64,000 nt of DNA. It comes from an uncultured Verrucomicrobiae bacterium (GTDB lineage Bacteria; Verrucomicrobiota; Verrucomicrobiia; Limisphaerales; Palsa-1400). The notes beneath the pieces are model-generated. The model searched no databases. It was not told the origin of the DNA and worked only from the letters and a program-made list of their open reading frames with translations. This document shows positions 8,867 to 34,976 of this stretch, one piece after another; positions within the stretch are counted from its first letter, which is position 1; each line of letters opens with the position of its first letter. Made by a program: the position numbers and the translations under genes. The stretch is from assembly GCA_963707025.1 (NCBI GenBank), contig CAVPOM010000017.1, forward strand, positions 164,082 to 228,081. Reading direction: 5' to 3'.

Positions 8867-9004
8867 TATGGCGGTTTAAGAAATTGTGTAGCTCTAAATG
8901 AGGGTGGTAGGGCGCGCACTCCGTGCGCGCCGCGGCGGGTCCCGATAATTCGGGACCGGGACCCTGCCTTGTAATGCGGCTACAGTATTTGTGAAACCGC
9001 TCTA
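8867..9004. mobile_element. MITE-like element copy 1 containing a GTAG-type REP hairpin
   Basis: Imperfect terminal inverted repeats (GCGGTTTAAGAAAT.../...ATTTGTGAAACCGC) and internal GTAGGGCGCGCACTCCGTGCGCGCC; closely similar copy at 19809-19945. Confidence 0.65.
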
Positions 9005-9704: not shown

Positions 9705-11287
9705 ATGAGCCAAGGCGTTGACAAGCGGTTTTCGGCGGGCAAATCGAAACTCATCCTGGGTGTGCTCGTCTGCGGTCTGATCGGCGCGGCGTTGGCCTTC
9801 CGCATCCCCGGCGCGGGCGGGGCTGGCGTCAGCACTACCTTCAAGCTGCGCGAGGTTTCCGCTTTTGGCGTGGACAAGGACCACTTCCTCCGGGGACAAC
9901 TCTGCCGCTGCCAGGACAAGCCATTCGCGGAGGTGAAGAATTATCCCGACTTCGCCTCCAAGGCGCCCATCTTCGGGTCGGTTCGGTTTGGCGCGAAAGC
10001 GGACCAGACCAACTCCGGCTGGCTGTATTATTTTGCCGTGGATGAAAGCCGCGGCACCGGCAAAGGCTATGACCGCCTTTATTTTGACAGCAACCAGGAC
10101 TTGGACTTGCGCAATGATCCGGTGGCCAAACTCCAGCAGCATTCGCCCGATCATGCTAATGCCGTGAACTTCGGCGGCACCAAGGCGAACGTGGCCTTCG
10201 ATTTTCTGAAGGTCAACCTGGCCGGCAGCGACGGCGCCTCCAACCTGGTGGAACTCATGCCGCGCCTCCTCGTCACGGCGAGCGACACGCAAACCTACTG
10301 CTACCTGTTTTTCGTGCGCACCCGCCTTTTTGAAGGCGACATCCGCATAGGCGGCGAAAAGTTTCACGCCCAGCTCGGCAATGATTATGCCATAACACCC
10401 GGCTTCGATTCCCCCTCGACCGCCCTGGTTCTGAGCCAGGGGCGCAATACCATTGATTGGTGGGGCGGGGACCGGCAATCGGCTATTCACAAGGTGGACG
10501 GCCACTTCTACCGCCTTTCCGCCACCCCGGCCGGCGAGTTGACCGTGCATCCTTATGAGGGAGAGTTGGGAACCTTTGAAGTGGGAGCAGGCGCCCGAAA
10601 ACTGACCAATTTCAGCCTGTCCGGTTCTTTGCGCGCCAAGGATTGGGCCGTGCCGGTGGGCGGCGACATCCAAGACGGCCGGCCTGTCGAGGCCAAGCGT
10701 TGCCAGATTCCGGTGGGCGATTACCTGCCGGAGTATCTCTCCCTGCAATTCGGCCGGCTGCAAATAAATGTTTCGCAAAACTACCATTCGGAAGGCAAAC
10801 GGCAGAGCCGGGAAGGCCGGGCGGACGTTTTCGGAATGGCCGTCCGCAAGGACCAGCCGTTCGTGCTGGATTTCTCCAACAAACCCGACGTGATGTTCGC
10901 TTCCCCCGCCCCGGGTCAGCGGATCAAAGCGGGCGACACCCTCATGGTCATGGCCGTGCTGGTGGACCCGAAACTGGACATCATGATCCGCGGACTGGAC
11001 GACACTTCGCGCAAGCAGACCAAGGATGCCGAGGGCAAGCCCCTGGGCTATGAACGGACCCTGCCGCTGGATCCCACCGTGATCATCACCGGGCCGGCGG
11101 CGAGAAAGTGGCTGAGGGCGTCATGCCCTTTGGGTGAGACGGCACCTGCGGGTATTCATGGCGAGTGCCAAAAGATCTCAAACTGGACGGCCGGGCGGAA
11201 ACTTTCAACATCCAGGTGTTTTACGACACGCTGGAACTTTACGGCAAGGTCAGCGCCAGCCGCCCCGTCACGGTCTATCGCGAATGA
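9705..11287 (+). CDS. putative exported selenoprotein A (FG-U-DGTC); Sec codon 11135-11137; one-base deletion near 11090
   Basis: N-terminal TM/signal and DSNQDLD loop. Restoring one C gives ...EKVAEGVMPFG-TGA-DGTCGYSWRVP... with 49 more codons to TGA 11285; SECIS-like hairpin follows. Confidence 0.75.
11151..11169 (+). promoter_or_regulatory. candidate bacterial SECIS of gene A
   Basis: GGUAUUC-AUGGC-GAGUGCC hairpin; loop begins +21 after UGA. Confidence 0.75.
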
Positions 11288-11361
11288 ACGGGGCGCCGGG
11301 CCGCGGATCAACCAAACTTGTCGTCCGCTGGCACAAAAATTCAATGAAAGAAAGAATCCTT

Positions 11362-12153
11362 ATGATCCCAAAGTTCCATAAAGCAAACCGCGGCTTTGCC
11401 GTGGCGGCCTTCTTGCTGGCGGGCCTCGGACTGGTGACGCTGACGGACGCGCAAACCGGCGCCAATCCCGACACCACGGCCCCCGCGCAGGCAGATGGTC
11501 CGCCGCGCATTCTCGCCACCTCGCCCAAGAGCGGCGTCAACAATGTGGATCCGGCTCTGAAGGAGATCACCATCACCTTTGACCGCGACATGGAAGGCGG
11601 CATGTCCTGGACCGGAGGCGGGCCGGCCTTTCCCAAATCGCCGGAGGGGGCGAAGGCCCGTTGGCGCGACAAGCGCACCTGCGTTTTGCCCGTGACGCTC
11701 CAAACCGGCCATGACTACCGCGTCGGCATCAATTCACCCAGCTTTCAGAATTTTCGGAGCGCCGCCAGCGTGCCGGCCGCGCCCACCGCCATTGTCTTCA
11801 GGACCAGCGGCCCGAAGGTCGAAAGCAAAGCGCCTGAGATTGTCAGCCTCAACCCGGCCAATGGCGCGAGCGATGTCAGCCCGGCGCTGACCGAGTTGCG
11901 GGTCACCTTCAACATGGCCATGGGGAATGGATGTTCCTGGACGGGCGGCGGTCCCAGGTATCCCGTTATTCCTGCCGGGAAGAAAGCTTCTTGGAGCAAG
12001 GACCACAAAACTTGTGTATTGCCGGTGGAGCTGAAACCAGGCTCGTCGTATCAATTGGGCCTCAATAGCCTGTCGTACAAAGGCTTTCAGAGCGAAGACG
12101 GCGTTCCGTTGAAACCGGTGACCTACACCTTCAAAACGAGCGATGCGCCGTGA
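11362..12153 (+). CDS. secreted protein with two tandem Ig-like (Big_5-type) domains
   Basis: Signal peptide and two repeats of 'P.I....P..G...V.PAL.E...TF...M..G.SWTGGGP..P...W..D..TCVLPV.L..G..Y..G.NS'. Confidence 0.7.
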   Translation: MIPKFHKANRGFAVAAFLLAGLGLVTLTDAQTGANPDTTAPAQADGPPRILATSPKSGVNNVDPALKEITITFDRDMEGGMSWTGGGPAFPKSPEGAKARWRDKRTCVLPVTLQTGHDYRVGINSPSFQNFRSAASVPAAPTAIVFRTSGPKVESKAPEIVSLNPANGASDVSPALTELRVTFNMAMGNGCSWTGGGPRYPVIPAGKKASWSKDHKTCVLPVELKPGSSYQLGLNSLSYKGFQSEDGVPLKPVTYTFKTSDAP

Positions 12154-12190
12154 CTGTTCCGTAACGCGCTGATGCTTCCCGGGCTGCTGA

Positions 12191-13957
12191 ATGGTTGCCA
12201 TCAATGTTATGAAACCTGATCGGGCCGCCAGAACCTCCCTGATCATTCCTCGATGTTTCCAAGCAGCCGCTGCCGGAAACACCGGGGTTCTGCTGGCGTC
12301 TTTGATTTTGTTTCTCTCCGCTTGCCCGCCAGCCAAGGCCCGCGAAAGTCCACCTGCCGCCGGGGCCGCGGTTGGCGCCGCAGTTGACTTGTTGCAACGC
12401 TATCCGACCAAGTTGGCGGCGGGCGATACCAACCCGAATCAAGCCCGGTCATGGGAATTCACGGACGGCGACATCTTTCGGGTGACACAGTTTCGTCTGG
12501 CGGCGGGCAAGGAATTGCGGGTGGAGACAGGGCCCGCTGACCTGGGCATCGGCCACTGCGCGGATGGCGCCGTCTGGGCGGTGCTCATCCCGCGAGCCGG
12601 CGGAACACTGACCAGTCAAGAGAGCAACCAGGAAGCCATCGCCCATGTGTGGCTTCGGTTTCACCCGAAGGAGATCAGACACCTGTTCCCGCCGGAGACG
12701 GTGTTCGCCGGCGGAGCTGTCAACTTGTCAGCCCAGATGCGCCTCATTGCCAATGCCAAGATGACTTCAAGCTGGCAGGCCGGAGGCAGGGCCATGATTC
12801 CGGAGCCAAAGGACATGACCGTGGATGTGGATGCCAAGAATGGCTGGCGTCGGTTCTTCGCGGTGGATCAGCAGTCCCAAACGGCAGAATACGTTGACGC
12901 CTTCGCCAACCGGTCCGTCAAGCTCCCGCCGCCTCTGACGCAAGGCGCAGCCCAGGCGGCTTTTGATCAACTCTGGGAGGCATTCGATCGCGACTACGCC
13001 ATGTTCGTGCTCCGCCCGGAAGTGGATTGGGCAAAGTTGCGCGAGCAGTATCGTCCGCCGGCGCTCGCCAGCAAATCCGCCTATGAGTTGGCCGGCGTCT
13101 GCGCGGACATGCTGGCCAAGCTCCGCGACCTGCACATCTGGCTGACGGTCGCCGGCGCGCCAGTCCCGGTGTTTAACCGGCCCCGGTCAGCCAATGCCAA
13201 TCCGCGAGCCTGCCAGGCCCTTCTCGGCGGTTTCAAACAGGAAGGACGGGTGGCTTGGGCCGTCACGACCAACCACATCGGCTTCATCGCCATCTTCGGC
13301 TGGGACGATCCGAAGATTCCGGCGCAGTGCGGCGAAGCCCTGGAACAAATGCGCGCTACCCGCGGGCTGATTGTGGATGTGCGCCTGAACGGCGGTGGTG
13401 GCGAACCATTGGCCGCACGATTCGCGGGCCGTTTTCTGGAGAAGGAGTTCGTCTATGCCTTTAGCCAGTTTCGGAACGGCCCAAGCCACACGAACCTGAC
13501 GGACAAGTCCCAACGCGCCATCGCGCCGCGCGGGCCGTGGCGCTACGACCGTCCCGTCCTGTTGCTCATCGGCCAGAAGTGCATGAGCAGCGATGAATCC
13601 TTCGTCGGCATGATGACGGGCGACCCGCAGGTCACGACCATGGGCGATCACACTTGCGGCTCCAGCGGCAACCCCGAAATCGTCCGCCTGCCACTGGACA
13701 TGACGGTGAGCGTGCCGCAGTGGATTGATTACCTGCCGGACGGCACGCCGCTGGATGAGCGCGGGTTCCAACCGCAGATTCCGTTTCAGCCGGCGCCCGG
13801 CGCGTTTGAAGGCGGTCGGGACGACCTGCTCGCCGCCGCGCTGGCGCGTCTGAGTCAGGCGCCTTTGCCCGGCAAACAGATTGAAGGACCCGTGTTTGAA
13901 CCCGCGACTTCCGACCTGCCGGATCATAGCCAGGGCGTGGAGGAAGAAGCCAAGTGA
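12191..13957 (+). CDS. secreted S41 family peptidase
   Basis: FDQLWEAFDRDY (tricorn C1-like), LIVDVRLNGGG, CMSSDESF (catalytic Ser), GDHTCGSSGNP. Confidence 0.8.
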   Translation: MVAINVMKPDRAARTSLIIPRCFQAAAAGNTGVLLASLILFLSACPPAKARESPPAAGAAVGAAVDLLQRYPTKLAAGDTNPNQARSWEFTDGDIFRVTQFRLAAGKELRVETGPADLGIGHCADGAVWAVLIPRAGGTLTSQESNQEAIAHVWLRFHPKEIRHLFPPETVFAGGAVNLSAQMRLIANAKMTSSWQAGGRAMIPEPKDMTVDVDAKNGWRRFFAVDQQSQTAEYVDAFANRSVKLPPPLTQGAAQAAFDQLWEAFDRDYAMFVLRPEVDWAKLREQYRPPALASKSAYELAGVCADMLAKLRDLHIWLTVAGAPVPVFNRPRSANANPRACQALLGGFKQEGRVAWAVTTNHIGFIAIFGWDDPKIPAQCGEALEQMRATRGLIVDVRLNGGGGEPLAARFAGRFLEKEFVYAFSQFRNGPSHTNLTDKSQRAIAPRGPWRYDRPVLLLIGQKCMSSDESFVGMMTGDPQVTTMGDHTCGSSGNPEIVRLPLDMTVSVPQWIDYLPDGTPLDERGFQPQIPFQPAPGAFEGGRDDLLAAALARLSQAPLPGKQIEGPVFEPATSDLPDHSQGVEEEAK

Positions 13958-14004
13958 ACGTGCGGTGCGGCAAAAAAGCCCCCCAAGTCACCGCCAGCAG
14001 CGCG

Positions 14005-14892
14005 TTAAATTGATGACTTGTTCGTATCGCTCGGCGGCGTGTTTTGCGGCAGGGCGAAGCACGGCTCCAGGGCGCCGCAGGTGGCGCATTCCAGGCAGCG
14101 GATGCAGCCGGAGACGTTGACGGCCTGGTCCACTTTCACGCCCATCGAGCAGCGGCTGCGGCAGAGGTTGCATTCGACGCACTGCTGAGGATTGAACCGG
14201 AGATGAAACAGGCTGAATCGGTTGAAGAGCGCGAGCAGTCCGCCGAGCGGACAAAACATCCGGCACCACGGCCGGTGAATGAAAAGCGCGACGGCAAGGA
14301 ATGAAAGCAAAAGCCCGGTCTTAAAACCGCTCATGATCCACCCGTGGCCGGCCAGCAGGCTTTGCACCGAGTAAGGCACGCCCGCTTCCAGCGCGCCCGC
14401 CGGACAAAGCCGGCAGATGGACACCACCTGCTTCTCAAACGGAATGCCTTTGTAACCCAAAATCAGCGGCAAAAGAATCACCAGCCCGCCCAGAACCACG
14501 TAACGGATGCTGCCGGTCCAGGACGGCAGGTTGATTTTCCGAGTTGTGATTTTGCCAAGCAAGTCCTGGAGAAAACCGAACGGACAAGCCCAGCCGCAGA
14601 CGATGGAACCGCCCACCGCGCCAACCAGCAGCAGCACGCCGATCAACAAATACGGCGCTTCCCCAACCACCGGCAGCAGCGCCGCGTAGTTCGCCATCAC
14701 CCCTATCGGGCAGGCGAAAGCCGACAGCGGGCACGAGTAGCAGTGGAACACGCAGCCGGGAATGCCATGCAGCCATTGGCCCGCCGGCGCCAGCCACACC
14801 CCCAGAAAACCGGTTTGCACCCAGGGACGGACGCGGGCAAGCATCCGCCCTCGAGCGGCGGCCTGGGGCAATGCTGGTGGCTGATGGCTCAT
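14005..14892 (-). CDS. membrane-bound 4Fe-4S binding protein (NapH/MauN/YccM-like)
   Basis: TM helices with CYSCP..ACPIG, CGWACPFG, CRLCPAG, CRMFCPLG and ferredoxin motifs CVECNLCRSRC, CIRCLEC. Confidence 0.85.
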   Translation of the reverse strand: MSHQPPALPQAAARGRMLARVRPWVQTGFLGVWLAPAGQWLHGIPGCVFHCYSCPLSAFACPIGVMANYAALLPVVGEAPYLLIGVLLLVGAVGGSIVCGWACPFGFLQDLLGKITTRKINLPSWTGSIRYVVLGGLVILLPLILGYKGIPFEKQVVSICRLCPAGALEAGVPYSVQSLLAGHGWIMSGFKTGLLLSFLAVALFIHRPWCRMFCPLGGLLALFNRFSLFHLRFNPQQCVECNLCRSRCSMGVKVDQAVNVSGCIRCLECATCGALEPCFALPQNTPPSDTNKSSI

Positions 14893-14902
14893 GGATTAAG
14901 AG

Positions 14903-15430
14903 GGCTGAAGGCTGAAGGCTAAAGGCTGAAACATGGGGGTTGTGGGAAAAATCTTCATGAATTTAGCTTTTTGCGCAGCCTTTGGCCGTTTTATCAACGC
15001 TTGTGAAAATTGCGATGAGTTGGCGCGTTTCCTCGAGCAAGCCGGCCATCCGGGCTTGCGTGACACAACCGCCTTCCACCAGCAGTCCGAGCCAATACTC
15101 GGTTTCTTCGATTTCCTTGAGACAGTCTCCAACCTTGGAAATAAACTCGGCTTTCGACCGTCCGCGCGAAGCCTCGCGATAATTCGCCCCGACCGAAGTT
15201 CCCGAACGAAGCACCTGCTTGCCCAGCACTTGCGCAACCGTGCTGGACTTGGGCAACTTGGAATACAAATGAATGATCCGAAGCGCGAACGCCTTCGTTC
15301 TCGGTTTCAAATCTTGCGGCTCATCACTCATAATGCAAACGACAGATTTCACATTCAAATTCAAACTTATCTCAAAAACGCAGCCGATTTTAGCCTTCAA
15401 CCTTTAGCCTTCAGCCTTTAGCCTTTAGCC
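14903..15430. repeat. inverted heptamer arrays (GGCTRAA)x4 and (TTYARCC)x6 flanking the four-helix-bundle gene
   Basis: 14903-14930 and 15389-15430 are mutually reverse-complementary tandem arrays. Confidence 0.85.
14963..15331 (-). CDS. four helix bundle protein (23S rRNA IVP-like family)
   Basis: RTKAFALRII...QVLRSGTSVGANYREA.RGRSKAEFISK...E.EETEYWL. Confidence 0.9.
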   Translation of the reverse strand: MSDEPQDLKPRTKAFALRIIHLYSKLPKSSTVAQVLGKQVLRSGTSVGANYREASRGRSKAEFISKVGDCLKEIEETEYWLGLLVEGGCVTQARMAGLLEETRQLIAIFTSVDKTAKGCAKS

Positions 15431-15438
15431 TTTCTAAT

Positions 15439-15457
15439 CGGCCACGCCATGCGGCCG
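15439..15457 (-). promoter_or_regulatory. candidate SECIS of gene D, located in the 3' UTR
   Basis: CGGCCGC-AUGGC-GUGGCCG; loop begins +21 after UGA. Confidence 0.75.
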
Positions 15458-15461
15458 GGGT

Positions 15462-15836
15462 TTATTTCATTCAAGTGGGACAGGGTGTTTTTGCGCTCGT
15501 GTTTACGCGGATTTTCCACGCCGGCGGCCGGTAATTGGCCTGTTGTTTGGCCCAGCGGTCCAGCGCCTCGCCCGGATTGGCCACGTTATCCAATTTGGGC
15601 GGCGGTGGCGGCGCAACCTGGTCCGGGTATTGCAGGCCGCTGGAGGAGAAGGCCGTGACCAACTGCGTTTCCCACGCGGTGTTGCCGTCCACCGTGTCCA
15701 CCTTGGTCAGATGCCGCGCGCCGCAAAAAACCACCACCGCGCCGGTCAGCGCCACGACGAATCCGCCCCAGAAATCGTGGCCTTCCCGCGCGCGCAACGC
15801 GCGGTTGACCGGTGGCTGTGGGACTCGTTTGAACAT
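15462..15836 (-). CDS. putative membrane-anchored selenoprotein D with C-terminal CxxU (CPTU-MK-stop); Sec codon 15471-15473
   Basis: One TM (FWGGFVVALTGAVVVFCGA); ends TGT CCC ACT TGA ATG AAA TAA; starts 25 nt after tRNA-Sec; SECIS-like hairpin follows. Confidence 0.75.
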
Positions 15837-15860
15837 GCTAAAGGGGTGGAGGGGGCAAAT

Positions 15861-15957
15861 TGGCGGAGGTGGATGGGAATCGAACCCACCTGGGACTTTG
15901 TTGAGCCCCACACTGGTTTTGAAGACCAGGAGCGCCACCAGGCCGCCCCACACCTCC
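15861..15957 (-). tRNA. selC: tRNA-Sec (anticodon UCA)
   Basis: GGAGGTG...CTGGTCTTCAAAACCAG, long variable arm, GGTTCGATTCC, ...CACCTCCGCCA; 97 nt with encoded CCA. Confidence 0.95.
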
Positions 15958-16271
15958 GCACCGGGTCGCTGCGCCGCCGGCCGATGGCAGGCGTGATTTA
16001 TTTCCGGTGGGCTTCCTCATACACCTATTGTGACAGGTTTGGCCGATACTTCAATGCGAATAAATTACATCGGCCAATCAACGTCTGTCATCCTGCCGCC
16101 CAAGCCCGCCACAATCAGGCCAAACACCAAAAGTATGTATCCGACAGTCGCCATCCCTTCGTAAATTAAACCATGCCGATCAACATGCTGCTCGTGAAAC
16201 TCAACCCGGCCGCTAGCGCGATCACTTCGCCAGTTTTTTGATCTCCGCCTCCAGTTCGTCGAGGGCAAAAT

Positions 16272-17540
16272 CTAAGTTCTTGGTTTGAGCATCAGCGGAC
16301 TGGTCTCCACCTGGAACGGGCTGACAATTTTGACGCTGCCAGTCAACGGACGCTGCGTATTTTTGGGCTCCCGCCATGAGAGCGAACAAACGCCGCCTCA
16401 TCCAAACTCGAAAGTGCTGGAAAAAACCAGGGTTCCAGTGGTGCTGGCCAGCACCAGTTTTGGCCCCTGCGGGCGCTGCCCGCCGCGCAGCATTTCTATG
16501 GATTCCTCCTGCCGGCCCACAAATTGGAGACTAAAGTTGATCTGGCGGTCGGCCCCCTCCGCCGCCTTGAGCACGGCTTGCACCGGCTCGCCGATTTTGA
16601 GCAAGGCGGTCTTGTCGGCGGCGACCTGGAAGCCGGCGGTTTTTGGAAAACCAGAGCCGGACAGCGTCCAGGCCGCCCCTTTTTCATCCTTGCGGTTGAT
16701 CGTCCAGCGGACGACCCGGTAATGGCCGGCCGGCAAGGTGACTTCGCCGTTGACCGGTTTGCGCACGAAATGGCCGTTCTCACCGAAAACGACCAGTTCG
16801 GAAATGTTTTCCGGCACGCGCACCTGGCCGAGCGTGACGTCCTCCGCCTTTTGCACCTTGACAAACGCGCCGTCGCGGGCCACTTCGATCCGGTAAAGCT
16901 TGCCGTTGACTTCCAGCATCCGGCCCAAGAAATGTTCGCTGGTCTGGTCGCCCTCGATCTGGACTCGGTCGCTGTCATAGGCATCGGCGCCGACGTCGTT
17001 GAACGTGCCATTGACGTTGCCGTCAATCAGTTGGAGGCGCTTTTTCACGCCGTCGAAGTTCACCATCCCTTCATACCAGCCGGCGGAGGAGGCCAGCAAT
17101 TCCGCGGGGCCGGTTGCGGATTCATAAAGCCGGAACTCCAGATGATAGGTGATCGGCCCGTCCCCGCCCTTGAAAACCAGGCGGGCCGGCGGAAATTCGG
17201 CGTTGGGATTGGCCCGCGCTTGGAGAGGCGTTTTGTCGTCCAGCCGGCCATTGCCGTTGCTGTCAATGAAGAGCCGGTCATACGGCCCGCCCTTGCGCGA
17301 GCGGTCCAGGCAAACCCAGCGCCCGCCGCTGGGATCCATCGGCGTCACCCAGCGCGCGAAATAGGGCGCGGCGTTCAGCTTGGGCAGGGCGACGCCGGGC
17401 GGCGGATTGGTGGTCAGGTCCAATTGGTGGTAGGCCTGGCCCTGCGCCCCGGTGTGGTATTGCAGCCTTTGCTCCGTTTGCGCCCAGGCGCTGCCGGCCA
17501 GAACCATTCCGGCCAGAATCAATTGTTTGGAAAATTTCAT
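16272..17540 (-). CDS. putative exported selenoprotein B (FG-U-GGVC); Sec codon 16398-16400
   Basis: Signal peptide; DSNGNGRLDD and DGNVNG loops; ...STFEFG-TGA-GGVCSLSWREP... with 41 more codons to TAG. Confidence 0.8.
16367..16383 (-). promoter_or_regulatory. candidate SECIS of gene B
   Basis: GCUCUC-AUGGC-GGGAGC; loop begins +21 after UGA. Confidence 0.75.
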
Positions 17541-17571
17541 AAGGTCGCGGTTGATTTTTTCTTCCTCAAAT

Positions 17572-19680
17572 TCAAGTTTTCAGACTGGCCTCCAGCAATG
17601 GCGCCCTCACCGGCGGCAACTCCGGCTTCACGTGCAGCAGCGATTTGAGCCGTTCGCGGTAAAATGGACTGGCCGACGACAGGATCAAGAACGGCAGCAG
17701 CACCGCGAAATGGAAGGCCGCCACCAGGAGAACGGGAGCAAACAATACGCTCCAGTCAATCCGCCCGCTTGAGCCTATCATCTCTATTAAAAAGAAAGGC
17801 AAGCCGATCAGCACCCAGAGAACGGCCGGCAGGACGAGCAGCCAGATATAAAGTCCGAGCGGACGGTAACGACCGCGGCAAATCAGGCCGGCAAGACTCA
17901 GCGCCACCGAACTGACCAGAACGCACAGGGCCAGCGCCACGGCGACTGGAAACGCTTCGTCCGTGGAACTCCAGTCTTGCCGCGCGACAAAGGCCAGCCC
18001 GCTGAAACCCGTCAAGACGGACAGGATGCACAGAAAAGTGACGAACCGATGTTGCCGCCGCAGATAATTTGACAGAAGCCAGACTGCGGCCAGACCAACC
18101 GCCAGCGCGGCGATGACATCCAGGAAAAAATTCGTTCCCGGTGGCAGGATGTCCGGCGGCGCCAGGGTCAGCGCGATCAGGCATCCGAGCGGCAGCCAGA
18201 TCAACCACGCGGCGCCACAACGATTGGGTTTGAAGGCGAGCAACCCCAGGATGGCCAGCCACGGCAGCAACAGCGGCGCAAAACCGGGCAGCACCCAGTC
18301 GTAGGCGACCTGCGGCCCTTCCTTCGCGCCCAGCGCACCGAGGTCCGACGAAGCCACAATGGCCAGTTTGCCGCCGGCGGTGAGAGGCACTCGCCACGAG
18401 TGCGAACAGGTCCCGCCTCAGCCAAACTCAAAATCGCCCGTCGCAATTTTCTTTTCCCCGCAGTAAATCGCGAAGGCCGGCGGCTTGGAGCGGTCTTGCG
18501 CCGCCATTTGGTAAGATTCGCGGCCCGCGCCCACCAGGAGATAATCCAGCCGCAAATCCTGCCCGTGGCGGCTGGCGCTGACGGTATTGGTCAACGGCCC
18601 GCCCACGTTCAACACCAGCGGGGTCTTGCCGTCCACCGCCATTTGCCCGAGGCTCTGCGTCTGGTTGGCACTGCGGAAGGCCGCGGCCCCGTTTTTTTCG
18701 AGCTGGATCTCAAGCTGGTTGTAGCTGCCGGTCGGAATTTTGACCAGGCCTGCCGGCTGATCGAGCATCACCAGATACGGCCCGCCGCTCAGAACCAGGC
18801 GGCCGATCAATTGGCCGGTGATTTTCACTTCGCCCAGCGCGACGGATTGCTCGGTGAATTGGAGCGTCGGCCTGGCTTCGCCGTTTTCCGAACCTGCGGT
18901 CCACTCCAGTTGATAGGCGTGGCCATCCACGAAAACTTTCCGCGAAGGGGGAACAGGAACACTGGCGAGCAAACCGTCGCCCGCGTTGAACGCCTGGGCT
19001 CGCTTTTCCCAGGGGCGCAGCAGCAACCGGCTGTTCTGCAACAAGCCCGACGGGCCCCAGATATTTTGCACGATGCCCACCTGCCAGTCCCGCCCTTGCA
19101 AGGTCATTTTGCCTTGCCAGAACGAGCGCACCGCCGCGGAACAGACAAGTTGCGAAGGCGGACCATAGTCATAGAAGTTGAGGTCCGCCAGCACCCGCCA
19201 CCTGCCGGCAGGGGTGTTGAAAAGCAGGTGGACGTTCGTGAAGCCCTGATAATTTGCCGGCCCCGTCGCGCCGGCCAAAAACACGCCGGAGGGATCGTCG
19301 GTCAAATCCTGGTTGCGATTGAGGTCCAGGTAAAGTTTGCGCGCGTCGCGCTGCCAGAGAAAGGCAATGGCATTGCCCGCATCGCCCGCGAAATTCAAAG
19401 CGCCGCGAGCGATTTTGCCCGAAAGCGCCGCCGGCTCCTTTTTGAAAGGCATGGATTGCGTCCCCAGGCCAACGCCCCAGTTGTTGACGCTATAGGCTGT
19501 TTCCTGATATTCCAGCGAAGCCACCGTCGCGTTTGAGGAGGGGGAACCGGCCGGCGCGCCCTCCGCCGCGAGAAGAACAGCTCCCGGCCAAAATACCGCC
19601 ATCAGCGTCCACGTCAGCCGGGCCACCCGGACGTTTCCAAGGCACCGCCAAGATAAACCATCAGTCCTTTGCTTTGCCAT
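17572..19680 (-). CDS. putative selenoprotein C (FG-U-GGTC): exported domain fused through Sec to a multi-pass membrane domain; Sec codon 18418-18420
   Basis: ORFs 18418-19698 and 17572-18390 are in one frame separated only by the TGA: ...GDFEFG-TGA-GGTCSHSWRVPLTAGG... Confidence 0.82.
18387..18403 (-). promoter_or_regulatory. candidate SECIS of gene C
   Basis: GCACUC-GUGGC-GAGUGC perfect stem; loop begins +21 after UGA. Confidence 0.78.
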
Positions 19681-19808: not shown

Positions 19809-19945
19809 CAGGGCGGTTTAAGAAATTGTGCAGCCCTAAACGAGGGTGGTAGGGCGCGCACTCCGTGCGCGCCGCGGCGGGTCCCGATAATTCGGGACCC
19901 GCCCTTGCCGTGCAATGCGGCTGCAGTATTTGTGAAACGGCTCCA
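19809..19945. mobile_element. MITE-like element copy 2
   Basis: Direct-orientation copy of 8867-9004 with the same TIR-like ends and REP hairpin. Confidence 0.65.
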
Positions 19946-28589: not shown

Positions 28590-31500
28590 ATGAATCGTTC
28601 CGCAATTTCAGGTTGCCTCCGGCGGTGGCCCCGGCTGGCCCGCCGTGCGCCGGGATGGCTCGCCTTCTTTTGGGCGTGTGCCGCGCCGGCGGCGGCCCAG
28701 ACGGTCTTTTTGGATTTTAACACGGCGGGACAATACACCGGCAATTTTAATCCGTGGAACGACAACGGCGGCGTCAATGGCGGCAATTATTCCTTCCAGG
28801 AAAACACCACCGACGGCGTGGGCGGCGGCGGCGTCGCGGTGTTTCAAAGTGTTGACACCACGGCAACTTACAAGAGCGGCAGTTGGAATCTTTCCACCAA
28901 TGGAGCGACGGTCCTGGTGTCGGTGCTCATCTATGCCGACGGCCAAAGCAGCGGGGACAAAGTGCAGCTCGGCTTGATCAACTCCACCACTAACGGCCTC
29001 AACAGCAATGCGGGAGCCGCCTTCGAAACGTTCCGCTTCATTCCGGCCAGCGCGACCGGTTGGACACTCTATGAACAGCATAGAACTAATAACGTGACCA
29101 CGACCAGCGGCTCCCTCGGATCGGTCACCGTGGCCGCGGGGCGATGGTATAAATTCGTCGTCGGTGTGACCAATACTTCGGGCGCGTCGGGCAACCTGGC
29201 CGCCGGCTGCGCCCTTTTTGATTACGGAACCAACGGCCTGACGCCCGGCGCCAATGTCATCACTTTCTCCACCGCGGTCAGCCATGCCGCGAAGAACCTT
29301 GCGACCAACACGGCGGTCTGGCCGGCGCTGCGCGCCTTCGAGGACGCCGGCATCAGCGCCTGGGACAATTTCCTGGTGTTTCAGTCCAACAGCCTGCCCG
29401 TCATTACCCTGCCCTTGGCCGCCTCGTTTGTGTTTTCCGGCAGCGCCGCCACCTTCAACGCCCTGGCCGACGGTCCCGGCACGATTGCCTACGCCTGGTA
29501 CACCAATAACATTCTGGCTGCGGGCGCGTCCGGCCCGTCCTTTACGACCCTCCCGGTCGGCGCTGGATTCACCAACATCACCGTGGTTGCCAGCAATGGC
29601 AATGGCTCCGTCACCAACTCGGCTGCCGTCACCGTCGAGCCTCCGCCTGCCGCGATCAGCTTCAACGACAATGGCGCCAATTGGACCGTCAACCAATCGG
29701 GCCTTGCCTCCGCCAACATCACCGGAAACGTCTTCCACGGCACCGACGGCAACGGCGGCGAGGCGGTCACCGCCTGGTATAACAGTTTGGTTTATATCAA
29801 CGGTTTTGTCGCCGCTTTCACCTATCAGGATGTCGGCGGCTCTCCTGGCGCCAACGCGGATGGCGTTTCTTTCGACCTGCAAGAAAGCGGCCCCACCTAT
29901 CTGGGCACCGGTGGCGGCAGCCTTGCCATCAGCGGCCTCACCCCCAGCGCTGATTGGGAAATTAACCTGTACTCTCCCAATGGGATCGGCATTATCTACA
30001 ACACCGATGGCACCACCTTTGGTTATCAAAGCACGGGTGCGGTCAACGTCTCCAGCGGAGATCCCATCAACTTCACCCTCCAGTACACGCCCGGGGGAGC
30101 GGTGCAGGAAACGCTGGTGGATACCGTCACGGCACAGAGCTACACCACCAACTACAACATTGGGGATATTACGGCGCTGCTCGGCAGCAGCTTTGCCTAC
30201 GTCGGGTTCAGCTCTGCCGACGGCGGTGTCGGATCCACGCAGATCATCAGCAACTTTGCCTTCGTGAGCGGATCCAATAACTTTACGCTGGCGGTGGTGA
30301 CAAATCTGCCCGCCACGGGAATTCAGCCCACAGCGGCAACGCTCGCCGGACAGGTGCTTTCGACCGGCGGCTTCGCGCCGACCATCACCCTGTTCTACGG
30401 TCCCGCCGATGGCGGCACCAACGCCGCGAGTTGGGCCAACAGTTTTGCCTTGGGTGTGGAGTCCGGGACTTTCAGCCAGACCATCACCGGGTTGTCGCCC
30501 GACACGACCTGGTATTACACCGCCAGGGCGGTCAATTTTGCCGGCACTTCCTGGGCTTCGCCCTCCCTCAGCTTTAGCACGACCACCGCCTCGCCGCCGC
30601 AAGTGGCCAATGCCCCGGCCACGGCCCTTGGCGCCACCTTTGCGACCCTCAACGGGCAGGTCCTTTCGACCGGCGGTGTGCCGCCCGCCATTACTATTTT
30701 CTACGGGACCAATGACGGCGGCGCCAACGCCGCCGCGTGGCCGAATAATGTCTCGCTCGGTTTGCAGAGCGGCCTGTTCGCGCAAACCATCGGGTCGCTT
30801 TCGTCCAACACAACTTATTACTTCACGGCCAGGGCGGTGAATAGCGCGGCCACGGCCTGGGCAACGCCGTCACTGAATTTCACCACGCTCGCGTCCAACC
30901 CGGTTTCCATGCTCACGGCCGTCCTGACCTATCACAACGACAACACCCGCATGGGAGTCAACTCCAACGAAACGATCCTGACGCTGGCCAACGTCAACAC
31001 CAACAGTTTTGGAAGGCTGTTCTCCTGCGCTTTGGACGGTTTCGTGTACGCGCAGCCGCTCCTCGTGGCCAATGTCAACATCCCCGGCAAGGGAACGCAC
31101 AACGTGGTGTATGTCGCCACCGAACATAACAGCGTCTATGCCTTGGATGCGGATAACAACTCGGGCGCAAACGCCGTGCCGCTTTGGCAGACCAATTTTC
31201 TCGGGCCGGGCGTCACGACCGTGCCCAGCGGCGATGTCAGCACGGGCGACATCGTCCCTGAAATCGGCATTACCAGCACGCCGGTGATTGATCCGGTCAC
31301 CGGCACCATTTACCTTGAAGTCAAGACCAAGGAAGGAAGCGCCTATGTGCATCGTCTGCACGCGCTGGACATCACCACCGGATTTGAGCGAACCGGCTTC
31401 AACAGCCCGGTCGTCATCTCCTGCACAAATTATCTTGGAAACGGCGGCGGCGATAATGACGGCGGGAACCCTCCTCATGTGAGCTGGAACCCGCTGCGCG

Positions 31501-34500
31501 AGCACAGCCGGCCTGCGCTCACCCTGCTCAATGGCGTGGTCTATATGTCGTTTGCCTCGCATGGCGACAACGGGCCTTATCACGGCTGGTTCTTTGGCTA
31601 TAACGCCACCAATGTCGCGCTGCCGCCCAGCGTCTTTAACAGCACCCCCAACGGCGGCCTGGGCGGCTTCTGGGACGGCGGCGGCGGCCCCTCCGTGGAT
31701 GGGCAAGGCAACCTGTACTTCCAGACCGGCAACGGCGACTTTAACGGCACGGCCACTCTATCCACGGCGGCTAATTATTCCATGAGCTTGCTGAAGCTGG
31801 CCACCACCAACGGAATTACGCTGGTGGATTATTTCGCGCCGTCCAACGCCGTGGCCTTGAGCGGCGGGGACCAGGACCTCGGCTCGAGCGCGCCGATTAT
31901 TTTGCCGGATTCGGCCGGGAGCGTGGCGCATCCTCATTTGGTGGTGGGCGGGGGCAAGACCTCGCCGATCTACCTTGTGGACCGGGACAACATGGGACGC
32001 TTCAACGGCACGACCGGCAAAAACCTCATTGTGCAGCAATTCAATGGCAGTTCGGGTGGAGACCGGGACACGACGCCCGCCTTCTTCAACAACACCCTTT
32101 ATGTGTATGACGCGAACGGCAGAATCGGCGCCTTTACGATCGCCAACGGAATGTTCAACACGACCCCCGTGGAAACTCCCGATACTTTTGATAACAAGGG
32201 CGGCGCCACCGTTTGCATTTCGGCCAACGGCGCCGCCAATGCCATCGTGTGGGCGCTCTACAATTCAGGCGCCGACTCCCCCACCACTCCCTGCATTTTG
32301 CGGGCCTACAATGCGACGAATATCACCCAGGAACTTTATACCAGCGACCAACTGGCGGCGCGGGATTCCGCGGGCGACGCCGTGAAGTTTACCGCACCCA
32401 CGATTGCCAACGGCAAGGTCTATGTCGGGGCGCAGTACTCCCTGACGGTCTATGGGCTGGCGGAGGTATTTGTCAACACGCCCGTCATCAGTCCCAACGG
32501 CGGGGTGTACACTAATGCGGTGACGGTGAGCCTGTCGGACACGACGGCGGGAGCGGCGATTTACTACACGCTGGACGGCACGACGCCGACAACCAACTCG
32601 ACTCTCTACACCGGCCCCTTTGTGGTGACCAACTCCCTGGCGGTGACGGCCGGGGCCTTCCTGGCCGGGGCGGTGGCCAGCGCGCCTGCCAGCGCCAGCT
32701 TCATCAACAGTGCGTCCGTCGGCAGCGGCACGGGATTGCTCGGACAGTATTGGACCGAGACCAGCAGCGCCGCCTTCACCAATTTGAGCTTCAACACCCC
32801 GCCAACCCTGACCCGCATTGACACGAACATAAATTTCAACTGGGGCGCCAGCTCGCCGGATCCGAGCATCAGTGCCACCAATTTTACGGCCCGCTGGACC
32901 GGGTCGGTCGTGCCGCAGTTCAACGAAACCTATACATTCTACACGACGACCGATGACGGCACGCGGCTCTGGGTCAACGGCCAGTTGCTGGTCAATGAAT
33001 GGGTGGACCAGGGCGCCACGGAATGGAGCGGCGCCATTGCCCTCAAGGCGCAGCAGCGCTACAACCTCAGAATGGACTACTACCAAAACGGCGGAAACGC
33101 TTCCGCCACCCTGGCTTGGAGCAGCCCCTCGACGACCCGGGCGATCATTCCCGAGAGCCAGCTTTACCCGGTGGCCAACCCGCCGCCCGCCGTCGCCTTG
33201 GCGGGACCGACCAACGGTTCCACCTACACCGCCAGCGCCAGCGTCACCCTCAGCGCCAATGCCGCCGCACAATACAACAGCCTGAGTCAGGTTGCTTTTT
33301 ACACTAATGGAATAATCGTTGCCAGCGTGAGCAACCCGCCTTACAGCGCCACCATCACCGGCCTGGCCGCGGGCAGTTACACCATCACCGCCGCCGCCAC
33401 CGATGGCTCCGGCCTCACCAACACTTCGGCCCCGGCCACCATCACGGTCAATTCCGGCAGCGGCCAGCCTTACGGGTTGACCAATGTTGTCTCCGCCCCG
33501 GCCTTTTACAACATGCCGCCGGTTTTCACCGGCCCGTTGCCGGCGCAATTATCGTTGACGGGCGTCTTCGCCAGCACGCCGGCCATGGCCCCGGCCGCCA
33601 GCCTGATTGCCTACGCGCCCAACGTGCCGTTGTGGTCCGACGGCGCGCAGAAGGTGCGCTACTTTTCCGTCCCCAACACCGGCGCGCCTTTGACGCCCGC
33701 CGAACAAATTGCTTTCGCCCCGACCTACACCTGGTCTTTCCCGGCGGGCACGGTTTTCGTGAAGACCTTCGAATTGCTCACCAACCAGAGCGATCCCGCC
33801 TCCCTCCGCCGCCTGGAAACCCGCCTGTTGGTGCGCGACACCAACGGCGCGGTCTATGGCGTCACTTACAAATGGCGTGCGGACGACAGCGACGCCGACT
33901 TGCTCGCGACCAATTTGACCGAAGCCATTCCCGTTCTCACCCCCGGCGGCTTGACGACCAACCTGTGGTATTATCCCAGTCCGAGTGATTGTTTGCAGTG
34001 CCACACGCCGCCAGCCAATTATGTTCTCGGCGTCAACGCGCGCCAGATGAACGGCAACCTGATTTATGCCAATGGCGTGACGGACAACCAGCTCCGCGCG
34101 CTCAACCGCATGGGATTGTTCTATCCCGCCATTGACGAATCCCAGATCGCCGGCATCGAGCAACTCTCCTCCCTGACCAATGCCGCCGCCGCTTACGTCC
34201 AGCGGACCCGCTCCTATTTGGATGCCAATTGCGCCCAGTGCCACCAACCCGGCGGGAGCGGCCCCACCTTCGACGGGCGTTATGACACGCCCCTGGCCAG
34301 TCAGAACATCCTCAACGGCATTCTGGCCAAGGGCAATCTGGGCGATCCAGCCACGCGGGTGGTGGTGTCCAACGACGTTTGGCGCTCCCTGCTCTGGGTG
34401 CGGATGAACACCAATCTTCCCACCCTGGCCATGCCGCCCCTGGCAAGAAATATTATTGACACAAACGCCGTCCAGGTCATCGGCGATTGGATCAACAGCC

Positions 34501-34976
34501 TGGGCGGCACGCCCGCCCTGGCCCCGCCCTCCATCAACCCGGCCGGCGGCGCGTTCGTCAACTTCGCCAGCGTCACCATGCAGACCAACAACGGCGGCGC
34601 GGCCGTTTATTACACGCTGGACGGCACGCTCCCCACCGCTGCTTCCATTCTCTTCGCCGCGCCCTTTCTTGTCACCTCGAATGTCATCATCACCGCCAGC
34701 GCTTTTGCCAGCGGCTACATCAACAGCTTCCCGTCCACGGCCCGGTTTGCCATTCAGCCGCTGCTCTTCACCTCGCCAGGGCGCTTTGTCAGTAATCAGT
34801 TCATTCTGCCGGTTTTGGGCGTGTCGAACACCAGCTACGCCCTGCAGGCCTCGACTAATCTGATCAACTGGGTTCCCATCAGCACCAACGTGGCGCCGAC
34901 AAACTCCTTTACCCTGGCCGACACCAACGCTGCCAGTTTCCCCTACCGGTTTTATCGCGTTATTCAATTCCCGTGA
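28590..34976 (+). CDS. 2128-aa secreted multidomain protein: lectin-like, Ig/FN3 repeats, PQQ-type beta-propeller-like, PA14, di-heme cytochrome c, C-terminal FYRV domain
   Basis: Signal peptide; GANADG..F/AYVGFS lectin; VLTYHNDNTR propeller-type start; IYYTLDGT x2; FTARWTG..DDGTRLWVNG (PA14); CLQCH and CAQCH; ASTNLINW...FYRV. Confidence 0.85.
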   Translation: MNRSAISGCLRRWPRLARRAPGWLAFFWACAAPAAAQTVFLDFNTAGQYTGNFNPWNDNGGVNGGNYSFQENTTDGVGGGGVAVFQSVDTTATYKSGSWNLSTNGATVLVSVLIYADGQSSGDKVQLGLINSTTNGLNSNAGAAFETFRFIPASATGWTLYEQHRTNNVTTTSGSLGSVTVAAGRWYKFVVGVTNTSGASGNLAAGCALFDYGTNGLTPGANVITFSTAVSHAAKNLATNTAVWPALRAFEDAGISAWDNFLVFQSNSLPVITLPLAASFVFSGSAATFNALADGPGTIAYAWYTNNILAAGASGPSFTTLPVGAGFTNITVVASNGNGSVTNSAAVTVEPPPAAISFNDNGANWTVNQSGLASANITGNVFHGTDGNGGEAVTAWYNSLVYINGFVAAFTYQDVGGSPGANADGVSFDLQESGPTYLGTGGGSLAISGLTPSADWEINLYSPNGIGIIYNTDGTTFGYQSTGAVNVSSGDPINFTLQYTPGGAVQETLVDTVTAQSYTTNYNIGDITALLGSSFAYVGFSSADGGVGSTQIISNFAFVSGSNNFTLAVVTNLPATGIQPTAATLAGQVLSTGGFAPTITLFYGPADGGTNAASWANSFALGVESGTFSQTITGLSPDTTWYYTARAVNFAGTSWASPSLSFSTTTASPPQVANAPATALGATFATLNGQVLSTGGVPPAITIFYGTNDGGANAAAWPNNVSLGLQSGLFAQTIGSLSSNTTYYFTARAVNSAATAWATPSLNFTTLASNPVSMLTAVLTYHNDNTRMGVNSNETILTLANVNTNSFGRLFSCALDGFVYAQPLLVANVNIPGKGTHNVVYVATEHNSVYALDADNNSGANAVPLWQTNFLGPGVTTVPSGDVSTGDIVPEIGITSTPVIDPVTGTIYLEVKTKEGSAYVHRLHALDITTGFERTGFNSPVVISCTNYLGNGGGDNDGGNPPHVSWNPLREHSRPALTLLNGVVYMSFASHGDNGPYHGWFFGYNATNVALPPSVFNSTPNGGLGGFWDGGGGPSVDGQGNLYFQTGNGDFNGTATLSTAANYSMSLLKLATTNGITLVDYFAPSNAVALSGGDQDLGSSAPIILPDSAGSVAHPHLVVGGGKTSPIYLVDRDNMGRFNGTTGKNLIVQQFNGSSGGDRDTTPAFFNNTLYVYDANGRIGAFTIANGMFNTTPVETPDTFDNKGGATVCISANGAANAIVWALYNSGADSPTTPCILRAYNATNITQELYTSDQLAARDSAGDAVKFTAPTIANGKVYVGAQYSLTVYGLAEVFVNTPVISPNGGVYTNAVTVSLSDTTAGAAIYYTLDGTTPTTNSTLYTGPFVVTNSLAVTAGAFLAGAVASAPASASFINSASVGSGTGLLGQYWTETSSAAFTNLSFNTPPTLTRIDTNINFNWGASSPDPSISATNFTARWTGSVVPQFNETYTFYTTTDDGTRLWVNGQLLVNEWVDQGATEWSGAIALKAQQRYNLRMDYYQNGGNASATLAWSSPSTTRAIIPESQLYPVANPPPAVALAGPTNGSTYTASASVTLSANAAAQYNSLSQVAFYTNGIIVASVSNPPYSATITGLAAGSYTITAAATDGSGLTNTSAPATITVNSGSGQPYGLTNVVSAPAFYNMPPVFTGPLPAQLSLTGVFASTPAMAPAASLIAYAPNVPLWSDGAQKVRYFSVPNTGAPLTPAEQIAFAPTYTWSFPAGTVFVKTFELLTNQSDPASLRRLETRLLVRDTNGAVYGVTYKWRADDSDADLLATNLTEAIPVLTPGGLTTNLWYYPSPSDCLQCHTPPANYVLGVNARQMNGNLIYANGVTDNQLRALNRMGLFYPAIDESQIAGIEQLSSLTNAAAAYVQRTRSYLDANCAQCHQPGGSGPTFDGRYDTPLASQNILNGILAKGNLGDPATRVVVSNDVWRSLLWVRMNTNLPTLAMPPLARNIIDTNAVQVIGDWINSLGGTPALAPPSINPAGGAFVNFASVTMQTNNGGAAVYYTLDGTLPTAASILFAAPFLVTSNVIITASAFASGYINSFPSTARFAIQPLLFTSPGRFVSNQFILPVLGVSNTSYALQASTNLINWVPISTNVAPTNSFTLADTNAASFPYRFYRVIQFP

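Follow-up and report, generated by a model that had tools for sequence, protein, structure and literature searches.

Among described selenium-dependent systems, the closest to the locus analysed here is the SAO system of anaerobes, which, according to the accessible part of its description (10.1101/2022.07.06.499078), is likewise linked to double-cubane reductases. The locus lies in a window of 64,000 nucleotides (the whole stretch of DNA that was analysed) from an uncultured Verrucomicrobiae bacterium (contig CAVPOM010000017.1, positions 164,082 to 228,081). Three genes of this window, denoted A, B and C, carry an in-frame TGA that, judging from the sequences, is almost certainly a selenocysteine (Sec, U) codon, recoded with the help of a hairpin that has its loop beginning 20-21 nt downstream. 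In a structural model, the Sec lies on an immunoglobulin (Ig)-like module, hereafter Sec-Ig, and the family that A, B and C represent, one of exported bacterial proteins that no catalogue lists, is large (1372 clusters at 50% identity).

Both SAO and the present system comprise several selenoproteins per island, exported proteins with a Sec/Cys pair that are truncated in databases, vicinal Cys (CC) substitutes, a small exported protein with a C-terminal Sec (SaoC there and the CPTU protein described below here) and a strong tie to double-cubane reductases (NF040772 here). However, no sequence in the present set matches any hidden Markov model (HMM) of a Sao protein; the Sec lies in an Ig-like UxxxC module rather than in the CU motif of ABC binding proteins or a MerB fold; and the Sec-Ig family is found in Verrucomicrobiota and Planctomycetota, with many paralogues per genome (up to nine copies, in G521 and G377). 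The thioredoxin-fold selenoproteins with UxxC or CxxU motifs (DsbA-, TlpA- and Prx-like), some of which are exported, similarly combine Sec with a nearby Cys, but their pair is placed at a helix start whereas the Sec-Ig pair is placed on a hairpin turn of an all-beta sandwich, with U and C separated by three, rarely four, residues. The NapH-like extracytosolic systems, as far as the accessible part of the source goes (PMC8238504), share with this locus a PF12801 membrane polyferredoxin encoded beside exported redox-type proteins; those systems rely on flavinylated FMN-binding domains, whereas the adjacent gene here encodes a CxxU selenoprotein. MccSep/ExtKL, in the available portion of its report (10.1101/2025.11.18.688581), is also an exported Sec protein that was formerly split at UGA, but MccSep is a pentaheme cytochrome and A, B and C have no CxxCH motif. 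Hypothetical protein DG (NF049953, GUxG) resembles Sec-Ig in a GUxG-like local motif; its HMM matches neither the Sec-Ig loci nor the window's genome (G000) and gives weak unrelated hits in three of five genomes.

The 119-family table in the accessible part of PMC13188914 contains no UxxxC motif and no family name that suggests an Ig fold, and A, B and C are without a matching family in Pfam or NCBIfam (June 2026). A literature search, with subscription papers and supplements (the BSepDB family table) mostly outside its scope, found no description of the family. An earlier note, made from the letters of the window, had proposed a new kind of Sec site, and this proposal stands: UxxxC on an Ig-like fold is matched by no catalogued selenoprotein or curated family. 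The novelty thus lies in the families, the fold context and the island; the principle of a selenoprotein and a logic of the SAO type were known before.

Selenocysteine codons and their hairpins

Gene A (9705..11287, plus strand) encodes an exported or anchored protein of about 527 amino acids with TGA at 11135..11137 (plus); B (16272..17540, minus strand; 422 amino acids) and C (17572..19680, minus strand; 702 amino acids) each read through one TGA, at 16398..16400 and 18418..18420 (both minus), respectively. The motifs reported in the earlier note are present in all three (A, MPFG-TGA-DGTCGYSWRVP; B, FEFG-TGA-GGVCSLSWREP; C, FEFG-TGA-GGTCSHSWRVP), and the translations also contain the Ca-loop-like motif (LYFDSNQDLDL, LFIDSNGNGRL and LYLDLNRNQDL) and the (I/L)PxGxY motif (A, IPVGDY; B, LPAGHY; C, IPTGSY) described there. 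B and C are 28.8% identical over 163 residues (E 1.7e-10) and A and B 25.6% over 242 residues (E 0.01), so that by sequence comparison the three appear as distant paralogues. The motif occurs five times in the window's genome, each time with TGA, and not once in three base-shuffled versions of it; two of these paralogues are encoded on another contig, C11.

TGA is the only stop codon used at this site. Of 337 domain hits pooled and de-duplicated over the fetched loci, 327 have TGA and none has TAA or TAG; 319 hits show UxxxC, three UxxxxC, five U without that Cys and ten no U (four partial, one TGT, two CC and three without Cys). A metagenome search pattern that demanded the downstream Cys and SWR, and left the codon open, returned TGA in 126 of 126 distinct matches among those listed, and the genuine stops of these genes, 38-588 codons beyond the TGA, are mixed. 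The 79 related loci reached via N-terminal peptides (from the best 80 of 158 in that search) comprise 78 with TGA and one with TGT. Profile searches of genome samples found one TGA in 20 of 21 matches in the window's class, with no stop in the remaining one, TGA in 107 of 111 matches in the class of G033 (a Sedimentisphaerales record), where the others are sense codons and never TAA or TAG, and TGA in 14 of 14 matches in a third search. Mixed stop usage, named beforehand as the outcome that would speak against Sec, was thus not seen, and the counts lie above the minimum of ten aligned sites with TGA alone that is asked, among other things, of a bacterial selenoprotein. By record name, the carriers are mostly Verrucomicrobiota and Planctomycetota, plus a few unchecked other labels.

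The prediction that database entries are systematically truncated was borne out: all of the 120 best B homologues (of 744) end at FE[FY]G, and among the 150 top-ranked representatives at 50% identity, 115 end in a motif of this kind. Similarity persists past the TGA, in that the protein alignment runs through the codon and matches full-length homologues without Sec, some of which keep the Cys and have Leu, Arg or Ser at the site (P0211, P0276, P0277). The partner Cys is invariant in alignment A3 and, among 327 Sec copies, is found in 322; the proposed UxxxC spacing is seen in 319 of the 327 but is not fixed, given the UxxxxC copies and those without that Cys. A clean homologue with Cys for Sec was not found among these hits. 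The single TGT copy (L189) was downgraded as such, since a premature TAA interrupts its gene at codon 249 and the neighbour of this gene has lost the partner Cys, and the two divergent vicinal CC copies (L245 and L247), with Q-C-C-G in the Sec loop and no stop at the site, are the sole matches of G536 and G484, in which neither selA nor selD was detected.

The hairpins, of the selenocysteine insertion sequence (SECIS) type, were identified at 11152..11168 (plus; loop AUGGC) for A, 16367..16383 (minus) for B and 18387..18403 (minus) for C. With stems of 6-7 bp, loops of 3-5 nt, a distance of 20-21 nt from UGA and energies of -8.4 to -13.6 kcal/mol, they lie within the published limits for bacterial SECIS (stem 4-16 bp, loop 3-9 nt, distance 16-37 nt, energy at most -7.5 kcal/mol). 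The rule that G be present at loop position one or two fits 104 of 200 distinct 36-mers with pair 24-28 closed (loop UGG), and the AUGGC loop of 93 puts G third. Pair 20-32 is kept in 195 of the 200 (shuffles: mean 110, maximum 131) and pair 19-33 in 198 (mean 155, maximum 165), although related sequences inflate these counts and changes at pair 20-32 also affect the encoded residues (Y/H with V, L with E). A signal independent of the protein is provided by the choice of Ser codon, TCA or TCG in 189 of 200 versus 28% upstream, and of Arg codon, CGA or CGG in 187 of 200 versus 39% upstream, and by base 18, with a G in 196 of 200 across at least nine amino acids. Part of the conservation of SWR is imposed by the SECIS. 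In three inspected copies of G521, SGG stands in place of SWR and a shorter hairpin is kept. A strict hairpin scan of the window's genome gave 19 hits, six of which belong to the five paralogues and the CPTU gene. A genome-wide codon-model scan for further selenoproteins returned 380 candidates, mostly shadow-frame, and a promoter and terminator scan gave matches at chance level.

The CPTU gene (15462..15836, minus strand), together with the hairpins and a tRNA-Sec gene (15865..15957, minus; anticodon TCA) located 315 bases downstream of B, goes beyond the features named in the earlier note. This fourth TGA-recoded gene of the window encodes 124 amino acids with one membrane helix and ends in C-P-T-TGA-M-K-stop (TGA at 15471-15473), that is, in C-P-T-U-M-K. 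All 27 CPTU sites in the fetched loci have TGA followed by one or two residues, under a search pattern that demanded TGA; of 273 database homologues, the 120 listed all end at CPT. No Pfam or NCBIfam family matches the protein, which by its sequence is a candidate for a second uncatalogued, membrane-anchored selenoprotein family. Its hairpin (15440..15456, minus), located in non-coding sequence beyond the stop codon, has the same loop as the Sec-Ig hairpins, lies 20-23 nt from the TGA and shows compensatory changes. Because an unrelated gene thus has a non-coding hairpin with the same loop and spacing, the reading of the Sec-Ig TGA as Sec gains support.

In the window's genome, selA, selB and selD are on contig C12 and tRNA-Sec is next to B; no single piece of selB reaches the cut-off. 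When 301 genomes were sampled evenly across the window's class, the domain was found in 11 and selA in 41, and all 11 carriers (one, G185, with a partial selA match) fall within the 41 (hypergeometric 8e-11, kin genomes not being independent). Among 201 genomes of G033's class, selA is present in 38 of 40 TGA carriers versus 75 overall, and it is present in 44 of the 50 genomes from the N-terminal-peptide search. Of the eight TGA carriers without selA, four have selD (G035, G039, G046, G409) and two a tRNA-Sec match over the cut-off (G011, G009). TGA homologues are thus nearly confined to genomes with Sec machinery (selA in 11 of 11 and 38 of 40 carriers), and this second check did not refute Sec either; in two incomplete genomes that bear the TGA, G042 and G410, neither selA nor selD was found. 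Physical linkage is common as well: in 27 of 48 genomes (for each, some of its matches were used), selA shares a contig with the family at a distance of at most 15 kb, and of 79 loci, 30 have tRNA-Sec and 12 have selD within 8 kb. SelD of carriers is itself mostly of the Cys type (TGA in 4 of 47 genomes). Among 49 carriers, at least one genome being counted twice, the 48 molybdopterin-enzyme matches are all free of internal stops, and thus no Sec formate dehydrogenase is apparent from their sequences; among AhpC-TSA matches in five genomes, one of 47 has TGA.

Gene A changes frame near 11090, where the earlier note had called for one restored base, and comparison with orthologous loci indeed places a one-base gap between 11089 and 11090. 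The two halves of A are colinear with full-length P0277 (residues 42-463 and 465-528), and in other loci eight of eight A-type sites have 150 open codons upstream of the Sec site. As selA, selB and selD of this genome are each also split across frames (G000:C12:64900-69838), which suggests frequent indel errors in the assembly, the frameshift in A is probably an assembly error.

Fold and settings of the Sec-Ig module

The AlphaFold2 model of B, with Cys for Sec, is nearly all beta (pLDDT 94.1, pTM 0.88). Residues 319-422 form an Ig-like domain of about 100 residues in which, according to the model, U381 lies in a turn between strands and C385, four residues later, opens the next strand; the residues after the TGA supply four strands of this last domain (384-390, 399-404, 411-413 and 416-418). 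The proposed beta-rich, non-thioredoxin context is thus confirmed by the model, and because the strands after the TGA complete the sandwich, stopping at UGA would leave half of one. No Pfam or NCBIfam thioredoxin family matches the window proteins or 72 domain sequences, for which only weak MG2, PKD and FlgD hits were obtained (MG2 in 13 of the 72, best E 3.5e-4, none for the window proteins). Structural alignment of the B domain gave no outstanding single match: many Ig, FN3 and macroglobulin folds align, the best with Z 9.8 and a root-mean-square deviation (rmsd) of 2.5 over 93 residues. MG1 of the Escherichia coli alpha-2-macroglobulin reaches Z 8.7 (75 residues at an rmsd of 2.4), but this score ties with those of many Ig folds (Z 7.6-9.8), and the window proteins have no other macroglobulin domain. 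Foldseek with the B and C models gave no clear match, and sequence searches of the PDB yielded nothing significant.

The module is a portable unit that occupies the end or the middle of exported, lipidated or membrane-anchored proteins. Its settings include proteins of 160-240 amino acids behind a single anchor and the B- and A-types of 420-530 amino acids; elsewhere it precedes a C-terminal anchor or F5/8 and LamG domains, follows CarboxypepD_reg repeats or a BlaR1-type peptidase, or, in 67 sequences, is placed before a seven-helix membrane domain. The last arrangement is that of C (U421, C425), in which 281 residues follow the TGA, the membrane domain among them; the structural-alignment searches with B and C were dominated by the Ig domain and bear little on the N-terminal part of B or on the membrane domain of C, for which no clear match emerged.

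The export signals proposed for all three proteins are supported for A and C by hydropathy segments (residues 14-35 and 25-39) but not for B, the h-region of which is too short for the 15-residue hydropathy threshold and resembles a signal peptide by eye only. Among close B homologues with an initial Met, 115 of 119 have a hydrophobic stretch within the first 60 residues.

The selenium island

In the window, the CPTU gene is accompanied by a gene for a NapH/MauN-like membrane polyferredoxin (14005..14892, minus; PF12801 over the cut-off). Between the two lies a gene at 14963-15400 (minus) that is flanked by short TTTAGCC/TTCAGCC repeats and that we take to encode a four-helix-bundle, intervening-sequence-like protein. 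Counted over the 8-kb flanks of the 79 loci, from fragmented assemblies, the neighbours of the family are a CarboxypepD_reg protein (51 loci), a membrane domain of the C type (33), the NapH-like ferredoxin (26) and CPTU (22). The two-domain Big_5 Ig protein (11344..12153, plus) and the S41 peptidase (12191..13957, plus) are matched in 1 and 3 of the 79 loci, respectively, and are for this reason probably not core parts.

In most loci, the gene after B encodes a CarboxypepD_reg repeat protein of 750-1200 amino acids; giant proteins of this kind, with a C-terminal thioredoxin fold and a nearly invariant QRPS, are seen at L135:9270-12575 and in many other loci. In the window, a deletion of about 3.3 kb relative to L135, between B and tRNA-Sec, has reduced this gene to a remnant of its last ~16 codons (16221..16271, minus), and a partial homologue is present at G000:C17:145315-146997. 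A short stretch, gtgcgcgccgcggcggg...gataattcggga, is found at both ends of the cluster (8923-8950 and 19854-19881) and is possibly a repeated element that marks its edges. The secreted multi-domain protein of 2128 amino acids with repeats encoded at 28590-34976 (plus) has no relation to the cluster.

The islands L256 and L257 unite selA, a Sec-Ig gene, a double-cubane reductase (over the cut-off) directly adjoining it, selD, CPTU, the ferredoxin and dehydratase-like subunits, with methyltransferases also in L257. Just upstream of selA in the window's genome (G000:C12:56681-61800) there are a double-cubane reductase, a methyltransferase, two further dehydratase-like subunits and a gene that, from its motif, is presumably activase-like. 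Among selA genomes of the window's class, the double-cubane reductase is present in 8 of 11 carriers versus 2 of 30 non-carriers (p 7e-5), and in G033's class in 26 of 38 versus 1 of 37 (p 7e-10); in the latter class, 27 of 28 genomes with the reductase have the domain.

SelD of these islands, of about 540 amino acids (G000:C12:68191-69838; L205:15279-16877; L257:9118-10821), has a Cys-rich N-terminal extension (C-x-C ... C-P-C ... C-P-C), which we take to resemble the motifs of ferredoxin:thioredoxin reductase, and a C-terminal AhpD/CMD domain. At L255 (G185:C35:22094-22537), a partial selA match with an internal TGA adjoins a Sec-Ig gene, possibly in a decaying selenium island.

Possible functions and their meaning

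From the recoding signals, the fold, the export-type N-termini, the retained thiol partner and the island membership, all of which are established, we infer a function for Sec that is suggested mainly by analogy. In the reading that we favour, and hold tentatively at somewhat less than even confidence, the Se/S pair is an envelope handle for redox or metal(loid) chemistry that feeds an anaerobic reductive metabolism by SAO-like logic. Outside the cytoplasm, the pair would capture and reduce a soft electrophile, perhaps a metal or metalloid compound or an S-S or Se-S bond, and would be re-reduced from inside via the NapH-like polyferredoxin and the membrane-anchored CPTU protein. The pathway served would be anaerobic and reductive and would end at the ATP-driven double-cubane reductase of the same selenium island, the whole working like SAO with unrelated parts. 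The ferredoxin step is drawn by analogy with NapH-like proteins, which have been proposed as cross-membrane electron conduits in the accessible part of PMC8238504, and the overall logic by analogy with SAO, as described in the available portion of 10.1101/2022.07.06.499078.

Several observations weigh against this reading. The partner Cys is missing in five Sec copies, and several full-length homologues have lost both residues yet persist, so that the fold does not need the U-C pair. Only about one locus in three has the NapH-like or the CPTU gene close to the family, and the neighbour met most often (51 of 79) is a protein whose terminal thioredoxin fold lacks CxxC. The membrane domain of C has no invariant Cys or His and is therefore not itself an obvious electron wire. 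No double-cubane gene was found in 12 of 38 and 3 of 11 carriers, and the co-occurrence, counted over related genomes that are not independent, may reflect hitch-hiking on one transferred selenium island. In five genomes, searches run without a positive control found no ABC importer or MerB-like lyase and nothing over the cut-off for SaoL, SaoB or HgcA.

The neighbouring thioredoxin fold suggests a different, in our estimate unlikely, role: the Sec hairpin might lend its redox pair in trans to the domain without CxxC, and disulfides of the envelope would be reduced or isomerised. The CarboxypepD_reg gene that follows B in most loci would supply the partner, its C-terminal domain having an AhpC-TSA match in 29 of 42 members and, at the CxxC position, QRPS in 42 and QRSS in 5 of 53 (47 together, the pattern being unmatched in 6), and Sec-Ig domains are also fused to CarboxypepD_reg repeats. 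However, the partner gene is deleted beside B in the window, and many short domain forms lack any of B's N-terminal part. A predicted complex of the Ig domain, in its L189 form, with the thioredoxin domain lacking CxxC scored 0.00 and does not bear on the question. Thioredoxin folds without CxxC can serve as plain binding domains.

The linkage to tRNA-Sec, selA and selD would also fit a role in selenium handling or sensing, in which read-through of UGA ties the anchored full-length protein to the selenium supply or the domain captures compounds of selenium for SelD. The usually Cys-type SelD with its AhpD-like tail and Cys-rich head, and the anchors and lectin-like domains that often lie beyond the UGA, are compatible with such a role; nevertheless, we consider it improbable, as a partner Cys that hardly varies, and its CC substitutes, suggest chemistry at the site, termination at UGA would yield half a sandwich, and the CC forms are found in genomes without selD.

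Slightly less probable again is a purely structural role, in which a Se-S bond would hold together the hairpin of an Ig domain from an adhesin or surface layer in reducing surroundings. The fold neighbours are indeed Ig domains of adhesins, receptors and macroglobulins, fusions with LamG and F5/8 lectin-like domains occur, and the copies without both residues survive. Against this, Sec is costly and, in the families catalogued in the accessible part of PMC13188914, mostly catalytic or metal-binding; Sec has seldom been lost (in 6 full hits of 337); and the links to the ferredoxin, CPTU and double-cubane reductase would be left unexplained.

That the TGA is a true stop, or that UGA is read as Trp, is hardly credible: although UGA-to-Trp reassignment is reported for some Verrucomicrobiota (in the available part of PMC13462651) and neither selA nor selD was found in the TGA-bearing incomplete genomes G042 and G410, UGA serves as an ordinary stop in the rest of the window's genome, ending 2012 of 3605 long coding-like frames with a coding-like continuation rarer than after TAA or TAG (6.2% versus 12.3%, in a rough model), on which ground Trp was rejected, TGG never replaces TGA among the hits displayed, the true stops downstream are mixed, and the covariation of the SECIS and the dependence on selA speak for Sec.

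The present analysis adds two uncatalogued selenoprotein families, one of them large, with a fold and a spacing foreign to the 119-family catalogue. It points to a blind spot, since families with almost no Cys homologues are missed by searches built on Sec/Cys pairs, and hundreds of database entries lack the C-terminal half of their proteins, membrane anchors and lectin domains included. The Sec-Ig domain is small and well predicted, and lends itself to expression and assay. The analysis also offers a second, independent genomic handle on the double-cubane reductases, for which we know of no physiological substrate. Returning to the envelope reading, the system would be a candidate reason why these bacteria of soils and sediments retain Sec while having no Sec formate dehydrogenase. 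In its broadest form, which we put forward with greater reserve, the Sec-Ig module, the CxxU shuttle and the NapH-like ferredoxin may constitute a selenium-dependent envelope system of Verrucomicrobiota and Planctomycetota that feeds double-cubane reductases, and this system, not formate dehydrogenase, may be the main reason for which these lineages maintain the Sec machinery.

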